Shown: positions 32,794-38,941, counted from the first letter of the stretch. The stretch is 64,000 nt of DNA from Coraliomargarita sp. (GCA_965216325.1 OZ244160.1:2240001-2304000), one strand, 5' to 3'. The notes: generated from the letters alone by a model not told the origin. Program-made: numbers and translations.

Positions 32794-32851
32794 TATGATC
32801 GTAAAGAGGGGTGACGCAGGGCGCAGCCCTAGCGTTGCCCCTCTCGACTGG
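32794..32851 (-). other. attC of cassette 7 (remainder at 33511-33516, split by intron)
   Basis: Stem gaggggtgacgc-agggc/gccct-a-gcgttgcccctc; rejoined G|TTCTGC complements GCAGAAC at 33965-33971. Confidence 0.8.
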
Positions 32852-33510
32852 GTATGCCCGGCATGTTGTTAAAGTTATGGGGTGTAAGTCCCCTGTGAGT
32901 ATGTCCAACATAACAATCAAATCACTAGTGAAGCACAAGGGCGAAGTCGTGAGGCTTTCGTCCGGAAGCAGTGTGGATCAAAGACATGAGCCGATGAACA
33001 AAAACGTCATAGGAGGCATGTGCAATGGGATGAGCGGGCCCAGGATCGCAAAGTCCTTTGGACCGGTTGCATGTGTAAATGGCGCGGTTGTGTGTCGACG
33101 GTTTAACAGCTTATCCGGGGAGGCCTCGAACTGTGGCTTGAGAGGGCTTCAATGTGCCAATCATCTCTCTGGCACGCCTGATAGTAATGTCAGGCGTATC
33201 GCAGTTGGAGGAGTCAGCAGACGGCATAGTAGCCGCGGAGACGAGCTTGCCAGAGGCAGGACGGACTCACGAAGCGGTGAAGGCCTGAAGTCGATCATCA
33301 TCGGGACTCATTCAGTAGACACGTCCATAAACGCCGACCGTAGCGCGAGGACCTCTGATCTCTGTTTGATACAGCTCGAAGATACGTCTACTTTTGTAGG
33401 CGCGACAACCGCCTTAAAACAGACTGCGTAGCACTGCGATCAGTCTGGCTGCGGACCCGCATGGCAGGTGGTGTGGGAGGTGGCGTCGGTAACGGCGTCA
33501 CCTACTCGAT
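32852..33510 (+). mobile_element. ORF-less group IIC intron in an attC site
   Basis: 5' GTATGCCCGGCATG, ggggtgtaagtccc, DIII-like ggagtcagcagacggcatagtagc, DV-like 33440-33472, DVI ending CCTACTCGAT; no RT ORF. Confidence 0.82.
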
Positions 33511-33956
33511 TTCTGCTCCTTTAGTCCCATCATGTAGAGCTTTCCCTCGGATACTCCTAAGACGTAGCTCCAGCCGGTTTTAGAACCATTCCCTAAAGGA
33601 AGCTCCTTCGAATACTTAACTTCAACCATTTTATATGGTGTAGGATTCGAGATGAAGGTTTTCCCTTCTAATTCTATGGGTTTGCTCATCCCTTCCTTCA
33701 TCGTTGGGTAGATTTCATGGAATCTGGATTCTCCGATGCCCTGTTCTTTTAATTCTTTTAGCCCATCTAGCGTCTGCGAGAAGAGTTTCGGTGGTGTGTC
33801 TTGCACTAGCCAGATGCTATCCAGCTTCCCTTTTGAGAAGTCGCCTTGCTGTATGAACGCTTTAAATCGCTCAAGGAATTCTGTTTCCATTTTCTCTGAT
33901 GCGTAGCCGCTCAAAGAGATTAAGACTGCGGTGAGGGTGATTAGGATGTGTTTCAT
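33498..33956 (-). CDS. Cassette 7: secreted hypothetical protein
   Basis: Signal peptide MKHILITLTAVLISLSGYA; stop lies inside intron DVI (antisense). Confidence 0.75.
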   Translation of the reverse strand: MKHILITLTAVLISLSGYASEKMETEFLERFKAFIQQGDFSKGKLDSIWLVQDTPPKLFSQTLDGLKELKEQGIGESRFHEIYPTMKEGMSKPIELEGKTFISNPTPYKMVEVKYSKELPLGNGSKTGWSYVLGVSEGKLYMMGLKEQKSSR

Positions 33957-33964
33957 ATTCTTTC

Positions 33965-34015
33965 GCAGAACGTCGAGGATGAGCGACGGCGTAGCCGTTG
34001 CTCAATCCGGCTGGG
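33965..34015 (-). other. attC of cassette 6 (remainder at about 35921-35926, split by intron)
   Basis: GCAGAAC gtcgaggatgagcgacggcgtagccgttgctcaatccggctgg; distal TTCTAT complements ATAGAAC at 36221-36227. Confidence 0.82.
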
Positions 34016-35921
34016 GTGTGCCGAGCATGCGCTCGATGTAAAAGTGGTTAAAGTCTGCTATAGTAAGAACCTAATCATAAAATGAAAGAACTATTACCAG
34101 ATGCCAAGGGCGTTGTCGTGAGGCAGGGTCTGAAGGAAGGCTATGGGAAAGCTGCGAGCTGATGAACAAAAACTGCATAGAAGGCCGACGTGGTCTGGTG
34201 AGCTGGCACCACACAGCGAAACCGCTAGGTTCAGCCACGCAGGTAAATGCAGCAGTTGTGCAGCGGAGCATCGAGTGCTTACCTCGGGAGGCCTCAGCGA
34301 GTGGCATGGGTTGGCTTAAAGGTGTCAGTCAAGCCCATGCACCTGAGTCAGTAATGACACAGGCGGCACTGGTTGAGGAGTCAGCAGCGAGCATAGTAGT
34401 CATGGAACCGCGAGCCATGAGTAGGTCGATAGGCCGAAGAGCATGGAGGTCTCGAACGTGATGAAGGCTCAAACCGTATATGGGCAGTCCGACCCGCAGG
34501 CAGGTTCACCTCTCACTGGCACAGACCCGTGTCGAGAGCTGGGCGATGTTTGTGCAGGGAAGCATGGGGCTGCCGAGCAAGAACTACTGGAGTTGATGCT
34601 GGACCGCGCTAATCTGAACGCAGCTTGGCGGCGTGTGCGCAGCAACGGTGGAGCTTCTGGCATCGACGGTATGTCGATCGAGGACTTTCTGCCGTTTGCG
34701 CGCGAGCACTGGTCACGGATCGAGACTCAACTGAAAGAGGGAACCTACCAGCCAGCCGCGGTGCGCCGCGTCTGGATACCGAAGGACAATGGGGAGAAGC
34801 GCCCACTGGGCATCCCCACGGTGTTGGATCGTGTGATCCAGCAAGCCATCGCTCAGGTAATTGCGCCGATCTTTGAGGCACAGTTCAGTGAGCACAGCTT
34901 CGGCTTTCGTCCAGAACGCCGAGCCCATGACGCAGTCAAGTCGATCCAAAGCGCAGCCGCCAAAGGTCACGTGTACGCGGTCGATTGTGACCTGAAGTCA
35001 TTCTTCGACACGGTCGATCATCGTGAATTGATGCAGCGTCTAGCGCGCCGGATCAAAGACGGGCGCGTGCTGCGCCTGATCCACCGCTACCTCAAGGCAG
35101 GCATCCGCTTGCCTGATGGCAACACCGAGGCAACCGCCGAGGGGGTGCCACAGGGGGGACCGCTCAGTCCGCTACTGGCCAATATCATGCTCGATGACCT
35201 CGACCATGAACTCGAACAACGCGGGCACCGTTTCGCACGCTACGCCGACGATTTTGTTATCGTCGTCCAAAGCAAGCGAGCGGCTGAGCGCGTGATGCAC
35301 AGCATCAGTGGCTTCATCGAAGCGAAGCTCAAACTGATCGTGAATCGCGAGAAAACGAAGGCGGGTCGGCTGACACAGTGCAGCTTCCTCGGATTCGTGA
35401 TCTCGCCCAAGCGTATCCGCTGCTTGGATACCAAACTGCACACGTTCAAGAAGACCATCCGTCAAATCACCTGTCGCAGTTGGGGCATCTCCATGGAGGA
35501 ACGCCTCGAACGTCTACGACTGTATGTGAATGGCTGGCTGGGTTACTTCGCTATCGGTGTGCCGTTCAAGGATATCCGCAGCATGGATCAATGGCTACGA
35601 AGGCGTGTGCGCTTGTGCTACTGGAAACAGTGGCGTTTACCGCGCACGCGCTACCGCAAGCTACGCGCGCTTGGGATCAACCCGAAGACGATTAAGCAGG
35701 CTAGTCGTTGTCGAAAAGGCTACTGGCGCTGCAGCAAACTGCGAGTGGTCAGTATCGCGATGAACAACCAATGGCTCGCCGAACAAGGCTGCCCCTCAAT
35801 CAAAGAACAGTGGCTCAAACTCTGCTATCCAAACGGATAGCTCTAACGGAACCGCCGTGCTACGGAGCCGTATGGCCGGTGGTGTGGGGGCGGGAGTCAG
35901 TGATGGCTCCCGCTACCCGAT
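34016..35921 (+). mobile_element. Group IIC(-attC) intron with RT/maturase
   Basis: 5' GTGTGCCGAGCATG; DV ACCGCCG...CGGTGGT (35851-35883) with CGC triad; DVI ending TACCCGAT; inserted antisense into attC R''. Confidence 0.92.
34443..35840 (+). CDS. ltrA: Group II intron reverse transcriptase/maturase, no endonuclease domain
   Basis: NLNAAWRRVRSNGGASGIDG, RPLGIPTVLDR, DLKSFFD, GVPQGGPLSPLL, YADD, GWLGYF; ends after domain X. Confidence 0.95.
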   Translation: MEVSNVMKAQTVYGQSDPQAGSPLTGTDPCRELGDVCAGKHGAAEQELLELMLDRANLNAAWRRVRSNGGASGIDGMSIEDFLPFAREHWSRIETQLKEGTYQPAAVRRVWIPKDNGEKRPLGIPTVLDRVIQQAIAQVIAPIFEAQFSEHSFGFRPERRAHDAVKSIQSAAAKGHVYAVDCDLKSFFDTVDHRELMQRLARRIKDGRVLRLIHRYLKAGIRLPDGNTEATAEGVPQGGPLSPLLANIMLDDLDHELEQRGHRFARYADDFVIVVQSKRAAERVMHSISGFIEAKLKLIVNREKTKAGRLTQCSFLGFVISPKRIRCLDTKLHTFKKTIRQITCRSWGISMEERLERLRLYVNGWLGYFAIGVPFKDIRSMDQWLRRRVRLCYWKQWRLPRTRYRKLRALGINPKTIKQASRCRKGYWRCSKLRVVSIAMNNQWLAEQGCPSIKEQWLKLCYPNG

Positions 35922-38177: not shown

Positions 38178-38186
38178 TTTTCTTTC

Positions 38187-38257
38187 GCCGAACGTGAAGC
38201 ACTATCGCGAGTGAAGCGCGGAGCGCGAAACGAGTTGATAGGTGCGACTGGATATGT
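38187..38257 (-). other. attC of cassette 1 (non-canonical ATC inverse core)
   Basis: GCCGAAC gtgaagcactatc...gataggtgcgactg GATATGT; complements ACATATC at 38653-38659. Confidence 0.78.
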
Positions 38258-38260
38258 CCT

Positions 38261-38656
38261 TCATTCTCCGTAGGCTACATAGAGCGTATAACCTTCGACG
38301 GTGCAAAGCTTCTTTAGATCATCTAGGAGTTTCCAGTGGGCACCAGCATAAGCTTTCGGGGTGGCTGTGCTAATGAGTATTTTCTTTTTCGAATTGAGTG
38401 AATCGGATGCTCTGAGAACCTCCTCCACAGTTTTAACACCCCAGAAGGGTTCTTTCAGTTCTTTCTTTTGGGCTTCGATTAGCAGAAACTTGGGCGGCTC
38501 ACCAGAACCATCAAAATAGTCTGCTGCAGGATTCCAAGTCGGGTTCAAGAGGTAGTGAACTGCTCCTTTTGTTTCTTCCTTACCTGCAGATGCAGCTACG
38601 GACTGAAGCAGAACTCCGATTATGCAAAAGCTGATGACTGTAATTTTCTTCCACAT
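38261..38656 (-). CDS. Cassette 1: secreted hypothetical protein
   Basis: Signal peptide MWKKITVISFCIIGVLLQSVAASA; ATG within the core site. Confidence 0.72.
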   Translation of the reverse strand: MWKKITVISFCIIGVLLQSVAASAGKEETKGAVHYLLNPTWNPAADYFDGSGEPPKFLLIEAQKKELKEPFWGVKTVEEVLRASDSLNSKKKILISTATPKAYAGAHWKLLDDLKKLCTVEGYTLYVAYGE

Positions 38657-38941
38657 ATCAGTGTTATGTAGTGCATTCAATGCACGTTTAGCTGTTTTTG
38701 GGATTTGTAAAAAACTTACGTTTTTTGATTTAAGTGATCTTGTTAGGGTGCGTTACTGTACTAGTAGAGGCGGATTGGGATCGAGTCATGGTTTTGAGGT
38801 AAGTCAAAATGTGAAATGGCGGCAAGGTTTGTTTCCTCAAAATCGTGCATTCGCGGCGGTTTTTTGGGCGAATGCATGATTTTGTCGGAATTCCCGGCAA
38901 ATGATGCATTCAGCGCCCCGATTGGGTAAATCTGTCCCAGT

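Follow-up and report, generated by a model that had tools for sequence, protein, structure and literature searches.

A stretch of 64,000 nt from the genome of Coraliomargarita sp. (GCA_965216325.1, OZ244160.1:2240001-2304000; hereafter the window) very probably holds, between the genes slyX and hemY, an integron platform without an integrase of its own, consisting of an attI site, seven gene cassettes and two attC-homing group II introns lodged in attC6 and attC7. The array occupies window positions 32794-38659 on the minus strand, and the genome, from a member of the Opitutales (Verrucomicrobiota), is a single contig of 3.06 Mb. An earlier interpretation of the window made from its letters alone (the sequence-only reading) had placed an integrase-less cassette array in this interval, and the profile matches to SlyX and TIGR00562 on its two sides, the attC architecture between them and the absence of an integron integrase gene (intI) from the window all bear it out. 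The cassettes have the same orientation as hemE-hemY, the stop codon of slyX lies 3 nt from the last R' box (GATCATA, 32800-32794), and the GC content of the cassette open reading frames (ORFs) is 0.42-0.47, compared with 0.533 for the genome.

As had been described, each of the seven minus-strand ORFs is followed by an attC-like site of 55-71 nt, the last two sites being measured with their introns removed. There is one site per cassette, all on one strand, at a spacing of 390-570 nt when the introns are not counted. Read along the minus strand, a site is imperfectly palindromic, opening with a 7-mer that ends in AAC or ATC (R'') and closing with a 7-mer that begins with GTT or GAT (R'); between them, two stem arms (L'' and L'), the first with a single bulged base, stand on either side of a short variable loop, and each arm is set off from its 7-mer by a 5-nt spacer, the second of which ends in AC. 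The R'' box mirrors the first heptamer of its own cassette, which had been the core of the sequence-only reading: all seven positions agree in cassettes 1 to 5 and 7, and in cassette 6 the agreement is six or seven of the seven, depending on where the intron boundary is set. By comparison, only 3-4 of 7 positions agree between R'' and the R' box physically adjacent to it, that of the following cassette. The four variable positions past the conserved triplet match in each cassette, with a chance expectation of approximately 1/256 per cassette, and the rule extends to other arrays of the genome (GTTCTAG/CTAGAAC, GTTATGA/TCATAAC, GATCTGT/ACAGATC, and GATCTGC/GCAGATC). R'' mirrors the first bases of the cassette because cassettes entered as circles at G|NN, where the bar marks the crossover. 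In the mechanism we propose, the entry step of which is shown by the sequences, the folded bottom-strand attC of a circular cassette recombined with a G|TT or G|AT site, and the cassettes are promoterless, each an independently mobile unit.

The sites belong to a family that recurs in the genome. The Rfam library contains no attC family, with only intron families matched within window positions 28000-43000; searches were made with an nhmmer profile of our own, seeded with the five intact window sites and iterated on the genome until convergence. It found 23 sites at E ≤ 0.02 and 26 at E ≤ 1, distributed over six places, three of which adjoin the three intI genes of the genome. Covariation was assessed on the 19 intact sites of the 28 listed rows, the other nine being split by introns or insertion sequences (ISs), or partial. 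Among these sites, 151 of 171 bottom-strand L-box cells are paired, as against 105.3 ± 5.3 (maximum 123) in 1,000 partner shuffles, with 3-6 pair types per position, and all 19 share one bulged base on the L'' arm and the 5-nt spacers. DNA fold z-scores of the seven window sites range from 0.0 to −4.6 relative to mononucleotide shuffles; hairpin stability alone being uneven, it is the covariation, the mirroring and the architecture of the sites that carry the attC case, not the folding energy.

At its head, the array has an attI-type region, overlooked in the sequence-only reading, which ends in ...TACATAACACTG, with the crossover G at 38659 forming the first base of cassette 1. This region is 87-91% identical to genome positions 2853530-2853293, upstream of intI_B, and 81-82% identical to positions 558974-558774, at the head of another integrase-less array. 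In a four-way alignment that also includes the intI_A junction, the sequences are common up to ...AACACTG and the likeness stops exactly at G|, beyond which four different first cassettes follow (G|ATATGT, G|TTCTGC, G|TTGGGT, and G|ATCTGT). Integron A, where intI is adjacent, has the same divergence point, followed by a cassette with a mirroring attC (GATCTGT/ACAGATC). Because homology to the attI of a complete integron stops at the crossover, the array is, as judged from its sequence, an attI with seven cassettes and no integrase, not a bare attC cluster. Two smaller features lie within the attI-type region. A 6+3+6 palindrome (GTGCAT TGA ATGCAC, 38690-38704), located 12 nt before the crossover, is also present upstream of intI_B and intI_A and at 558.8 kb, and where its arms vary between copies, the changes compensate for each other; it may serve attI as a site for protein binding or as a hairpin. 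At 38825-38875, an inverted repeat of approximately 10 nt with a 12-nt spacer precedes a T-run, an arrangement also found upstream of intI_B, which could be a hemY terminator or an operator. The features of the array and its surroundings are listed in Table 1.

Table 1. Features of the slyX-hemY array, its flanking genes and the integron integrase genes of the genome. Positions are those of the window, except where marked as genome positions.
Feature	Position	Strand	Evidence and remarks
slyX, flanking gene	32578..32790	+	Pfam SlyX, 50.2 bits
attC7, main part, last R' GATCATA	32794..32851	-	intron-less site 64 nt, z −4.65; mirror 7/7
Group II intron A, ORF-less, 659 nt	32852..33510	+	Rfam RF02001 110.1 bits, RF01998 52.8 bits
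Cassette 7 ORF, 152 aa as it stands	33498..33956	-	stop within intron A
attC7, R''-side fragment (intron A 3' exon)	33511..33516	-	intron boundary comparison
attC6, main part, L boxes and R' GTTCTGC	33965..34015	-	56 nt once intron B is removed; z −2.4 to −4.3 on DNA folding
Group II intron B, 1906 nt, antisense to cassettes	34016..35921	+	Rfam RF02001 126.6 bits
Intron B reverse transcriptase/maturase ORF	34443-35840	+	TIGR04416 399.2 bits; Pfam RVT_1 and GIIM only
Cassette 6 ORF, 106 aa as it stands	35897..36217	-	last codons and stop within intron B
attC6, R''-side fragment (intron B 3' exon)	35922..35926	-	intron boundary comparison
attC5, 57 nt, AGCCATC ... GTTCTAT	36221..36277	-	L-box pairs 7/9; mirror 7/7; overlaps 3' end of ORF 5
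Cassette 5 ORF, 181 aa, four hydrophobic segments	36247..36792	-	ATG within core GATGGCT
attC4, 56 nt, TGCTAAC ... GATGGCT	36787..36842	-	G|AT core; L-box pairs 9/9; mirror 7/7
Cassette 4 ORF, 169 aa, signal-like N-terminus	36824..37333	-	ORF call
attC3, 57 nt, CGAGAAC ... GTTAGCA	37336..37392	-	L-box pairs 9/9; mirror 7/7
Cassette 3 ORF, 120 aa, two hydrophobic segments	37363..37725	-	ORF call
attC2, 55 nt, GCCGAAC ... GTTCTCG	37728..37782	-	L-box pairs 9/9; mirror 7/7
Cassette 2 ORF, 136 aa, N-terminal hydrophobic segment	37767..38177	-	ORF call
attC1, 71 nt, ACATATC ... GTTCGGC	38187..38257	-	L-box pairs 9/9 (bottom strand); mirror 7/7
Cassette 1 ORF, 131 aa, N-terminal hydrophobic segment	38261..38656	-	ORF call; cassette start G|ATATGT at 38659-38653
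attI-type region, left arm to crossover, 223 nt	38660..38882	-	homology to intI_B upstream region
hemY (protoporphyrinogen oxidase), flanking gene	38942..40354	-	TIGR00562 299.7 bits, cut-off 97.85
intI_C	genome 811172-812389		TIGR02249, no stops
intI_A	genome 2766304-2767437		TIGR02249, no stops
intI_B	genome 2853937-2855016		TIGR02249, no stops

Consistent with the earlier statement that the window holds no tyrosine recombinase, none of the 15 TIGR02249 matches and none of the 10 PF00589 matches of the genome falls within positions 2240001-2304000. The search for IntI elsewhere in the genome, which that reading had called for, yielded three genes above the TIGR02249 cut-off, all without stops (358, 357, and 340 bits). 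Identity is 74% between IntI_A and IntI_B and 41-48% between either of them and IntI_C. The closest intI begins at 2766304, approximately 488 kb from the end of the array at 2278659 and far beyond the 4 kb that IntegronFinder applies as clustering distance for clusters of attC sites lacking integron-integrases (CALIN). Since three intact-looking intI genes are present elsewhere in the genome, it is possible that the array is served in trans by an integrase made at another locus, and the likeliest partner would be IntI_B, because its attI is the closest relative of that in the window. Further insertion, excision and reshuffling of cassettes would then be catalysed by such an integrase, most likely IntI_B.

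Several observations weigh against an integron platform served in this way. The attC1 and attC5 folds are weak (z 0.0 and −0.9), no stabler than shuffled sequence; the window attI is 9-13% diverged from that of integron B, which makes recognition by IntI_B a guess; the genome searches covered all but 24 kb of the sequence; no recombination event is seen in the contigs of two isolate runs, both of which carry the same array in the same arrangement; and a simple sigma-70 scan of the minus strand at 38660-38940, a scan that leaves the promoter rules of the phylum outside its scope, found no promoter-like site. Hairpins after short co-oriented genes are common in operons, and with two hairpins as unstable as those just mentioned one might take the interval for a row of small genes separated by terminators or repetitive extragenic palindromic (REP)-type hairpins, with no integron involved. 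We consider this extremely improbable and rejected it: it fails to explain the mirrored heptamers, the attI homology up to G| and the occurrence of the site family beside three intI genes, and equally the L-box covariation, the targeting of the sites by attC-homing introns, the low GC content and the absence of the array from a congener.

An array of this composition is CALIN-type, a well-known kind of element. As characterized by Cury et al. 2016, CALIN have at least 2 attC sites in a row with no intI nearby and cassettes mostly of unknown function; 279 were reported in complete genomes, half of them with an IntI encoded elsewhere; integrase loss, rearrangement and insertion at secondary sites are among the origins proposed there, and CALIN in IntI-encoding genomes are linked to IS (PMC4889954). 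The window array resembles CALIN, as described in that source, in its serial attC sites, the lack of a nearby intI, cargo of no known family and IntI encoded elsewhere in the genome, and differs in keeping an attI homologous to that of a complete integron, a component on which the definition as given there is silent. Compared with a complete integron, the attI at the array head is present, by homology to the intI_B and intI_A junctions, whereas the adjacent divergent intI is absent. The array at 550-559 kb of the same genome has the same attC family, a B-type attI, intron B copies and likewise no intI, and it differs in its locus and cassettes and in having a nested intron pair where the window array has an ORF-less intron.

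How the platform came to lack an integrase can be approached through the same locus in other Coraliomargarita. The sequence-only reading had suggested comparing the slyX-hemY interval across relatives, and the interval proves variable, not invariant and syntenic, since it is short in one congener and bears an integrase in another. In the former (L010, HemY 80% identical), the flanks are the same, hemY and slyX lie 650 bp apart with one 179-aa ORF between them, and the attC profile has no match in the gap. A 9-mer seen by eye at L010:11990-12017, TTAACACTG, which is the attI core as found next to intI_A, stands 6 nt from the slyX stop and may be a remnant of an empty attI, or chance. The closest congener (L009, HemY 86% identical) has, starting 30 nt past hemY and convergent with it, an integron integrase (TIGR02249, 317 bits), the contig ending 290 nt further along. 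Each of the three other congeners has integron integrases above the cut-off, and 13 of the 18 other family genomes searched have them at E ≤ 1e-60. A second locus of the closest congener (L031, G001:C2:76094-78331, approximately 1175-2165) contains a stretch 68% identical to the window attI that adjoins a truncated C-terminal intI fragment and an IS3-type orfA at the contig end, and looks like another decayed integron at a different locus.

Loss in place, whereby a complete integron once stood downstream of hemY and the deletion of intI left the attI and cassettes behind, comes close to an even chance. The integrase of L009 lies in the same topology, the attI homology of the window lies only approximately 60 nt from hemY, the L031 locus pairs a truncated intI with an attI-like stretch, and integrase loss is among the CALIN origins put forward in the source cited above (PMC4889954). 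However, this integrase shares only 40-42% identity with IntI_A and IntI_B, the region upstream of it has no likeness to the window attI, and no intI remnant was found in the approximately 60 nt between hemY and the attI homology (best tblastn E 1.3). Chromosomal integrons with a decayed integrase at a fixed locus are known from Xanthomonas, where they lie downstream of ilvD. The window array has in common with this type a sedentary array at a housekeeping locus and an integrase lost or inactivated in some lineages but retained by others, and is unlike it in that the integrase at the same locus of the congener is distant (40% identity) and that the genome keeps three intact others.

Alternatively, integron B or a common ancestral platform may be the source of the attI and array, which homologous or IS-mediated rearrangement would have duplicated or relocated, the 550-559 kb array having arisen likewise, an origin that we find plausible, if somewhat short of an even chance. 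The genome has three B-type attI copies, two of them without intI and each of these following a housekeeping gene of the same orientation; the arrays contain IS91-like elements and near-identical introns, which offer ample homology for rearrangement; and a link of CALIN to IS in IntI-encoding genomes has been drawn (PMC4889954). On the other hand, the attI copies are 9-19% diverged, and the duplication would therefore not be recent; no IS is present at the boundary of the window array; and the start of homology differs between the two integrase-less attI copies.

Cassette bodies had no cover in the two metagenome runs, an absence that carries no weight. In metagenome run X6, a 2221-nt contig is identical to the window over the slyX end and the last R' box (32700-32803) and then joins attC4-like sequence, not attC7. 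Its joint side of 26 nt is weak, as joint sides in metagenomes measure 22-35 nt and may stem from attC repeats; the contig hints at a different last cassette in related strains. This join, for what its short side is worth, is at odds with the idea that the array is a frozen fossil, in which the attC sites are real but have ceased to be used by any integrase and the genes have become ordinary chromosomal genes. We regard such a fossil as rather unlikely. The occurrence of the same array in the two isolate samples, the splitting of 2 of the 7 attC sites by introns and the two weak folds would fit it, whereas the mirrored cores are intact in 6 of the 7 cassettes, three intI genes are open in the genome, and the intron B copies are >99% identical, so that the arrays were recent intron targets.

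The understanding of the integron mechanism is unchanged by the platform described here. What it offers is a fully assembled case for the question of how integrase-less arrays originate, with an attI that can be matched to one integrase of the same genome. Given this attI, together with empty and integrase-bearing loci in congeners, both service in trans and the choice between loss and duplication become directly testable in a marine bacterium that is not a pathogen. The retained attI, these two congener states of the locus and the G|AT cores are the points of interest, the array providing natural examples of such cores with compensating R'' changes, in addition to an ORF-less attC-homing intron.

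The core triplets had been described as mostly GTTC. This holds for the window, where 4 of the 7 R' boxes are of this type, but not genome-wide, the 19 intact sites comprising 8 GTTC, 8 GTTR, 2 GAT, and 1 other. The more notable deviation is G|AT, which is found at 3 of the 8 window junctions (GATATGT, GATGGCT, and GATCATA). Genome-wide, GAT forms 2 of the 19 intact R' cores, with more in split sites, and G|AT stands at 2 of the 4 attI junctions; overall, it accounts for approximately one fifth of the cores, the remainder being mainly G|TT. Wherever it is readable, the R'' box paired with a GAT core ends in ATC, and the pair in the folded R box is therefore kept. Alternative cleavage triplets have been documented in IntI1 mutagenesis and at secondary sites. 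In the IntI1 assays, the second base of GTT could be altered, and the results reported there include a higher recombination frequency for T2 to A2 (PMC2811028). The natural G|AT cores fit these mutagenesis results. In a bolder and rather improbable picture, IntI_B would serve three diverged attI copies (its own, the one behind hemY and the one behind a short-chain dehydrogenase/reductase (SDR) gene at 559 kb), the integrase-less arrays would be working satellites read through from housekeeping genes, and G|AT/ATC cores would constitute a natural second class of cleavage triplet.

The insertions in the last two sites, taken for introns in the sequence-only reading, are real group II introns by their matches to Rfam RF02001. 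In the proposed mechanism, both would have reverse-spliced into the bottom strand, one into attC6 and one into attC7. In the present sequence, ORF 6 and ORF 7 are each cut short at the end by these introns. Intron B encodes a reverse transcriptase (RT) without an endonuclease domain, whereas intron A is a ribozyme only. The genome has five copies of intron B, 99.2-100% identical and all directly after an attC hairpin; they share GTGTGCC...CTACCCGAT, preceded by T in three copies and by G in the other two, and followed by T in every copy. At the boundary favoured by these copies, the R'' box of cassette 6 reads ATAGACC (6/7 mirror); with intron B shifted by one base, it reads ATAGAAC (7/7). Removal of intron A restores GCAGAAC, an exact mirror of the first heptamer of cassette 7. 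Both the 5' and the 3' part of intron A match full-length introns of a second family, the RT of which is 48% identical to that of intron B; going by these matches, intron A is a deletion derivative of that family. Another ORF-less, A-like copy, 84% identical, is found at genome positions 2845049-2845680, and one metagenome contig has 1357 nt in place of 121 nt of intron A.

Insertion is into the bottom strand, directly after the hairpin and antisense, in all five intron B copies and in three of the four A/C-family 5' ends examined, the fourth A/C copy following the first base after an intron B copy. The sites are CTGGT/T in 3 and CTGGG/T in 2 intron B copies and CTGG/TT in the A/C family. Group IIC-attC introns such as S.ma.I2 likewise occupy the bottom strand of attC just after the hairpin, in antisense, and have been found in CALIN too, the target consensus (IBS1/IBS3) given in the accounts of them being TTGT/T (PMC3001079, PMC7923331). 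The window introns agree with those descriptions in the bottom-strand position after the hairpin, the antisense orientation and the RT without an endonuclease domain; relative to the published consensus, the introns enter the R'' box at an identical position or one shifted by a single base, while the letters differ (CTGG(T/G)/T for B, CTGG/TT for A), as do the host, a Verrucomicrobium, and the state of intron A, which has lost its ORF. The plasmid relatives listed for the intron B RT are headed by H1, 50.8% identical, and H6-H12 are 49.2% identical; H6 is an intron lodged in the attC of aadA1 in a class 1 integron, antisense and flanked by aadA1 and qacEdelta1, so that identity to the RT of a class 1 integron intron is only 49%. 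At genome positions 550374-554180, an intron B copy is inserted after the first G of a full-length second-family intron, and in this nested pair a single hairpin serves both families at positions that differ by one base. A third family of group II introns, whose RT shares 43% identity with the intron B RT, is represented by six copies, one at 2236360-2237781 (approximately 2.2 kb before the window) and the others at five other places; it was not seen in attC sites.

The cargo consists of seven small proteins of no known family, six of them with hydrophobic signal or membrane segments. A Pfam scan at E ≤ 0.01 assigned no family to any of the seven, tblastn against the genome returned self-matches only and thus no paralogues, and the cassette 4 protein had only unnamed bacterial clusters in the Atlas. 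Hydrophobic 19-residue windows occur in 6 of the 7, at the N-terminus in the proteins of cassettes 1 to 4 and 6 and in multiple positions in those of cassettes 3, 5, and 6. The ATG codons lie 1-16 nt downstream of the core heptamer. Transcription may start at a promoter within the attI region or within an intron, or may be read-through from hemY; a simple promoter and terminator scan gave no more sites than shuffled sequences.

Beyond the window, an element of 2.55 kb at genome positions 815791-818340 is present in three copies (L004, G000:C1:816118-819657; L005; L006) that are at least 99.7% identical. Its genes specify a XerC/D-like tyrosine recombinase of 327 aa and a protein of 367 aa, which we take to resemble the rolling-circle transposases of the IS91 type. 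In all three copies, the right end abuts an attC R'' box (...GCTTTGTT|CAACCAG), and the element looks like an insertion element that targets attC. Finally, the cumulative GC skew of the genome is very asymmetric, with turning points at approximately 1.06 and 1.81 Mb; if these are the terminus and the origin, the replichores are very unequal, approximately 0.75 and 2.3 Mb.

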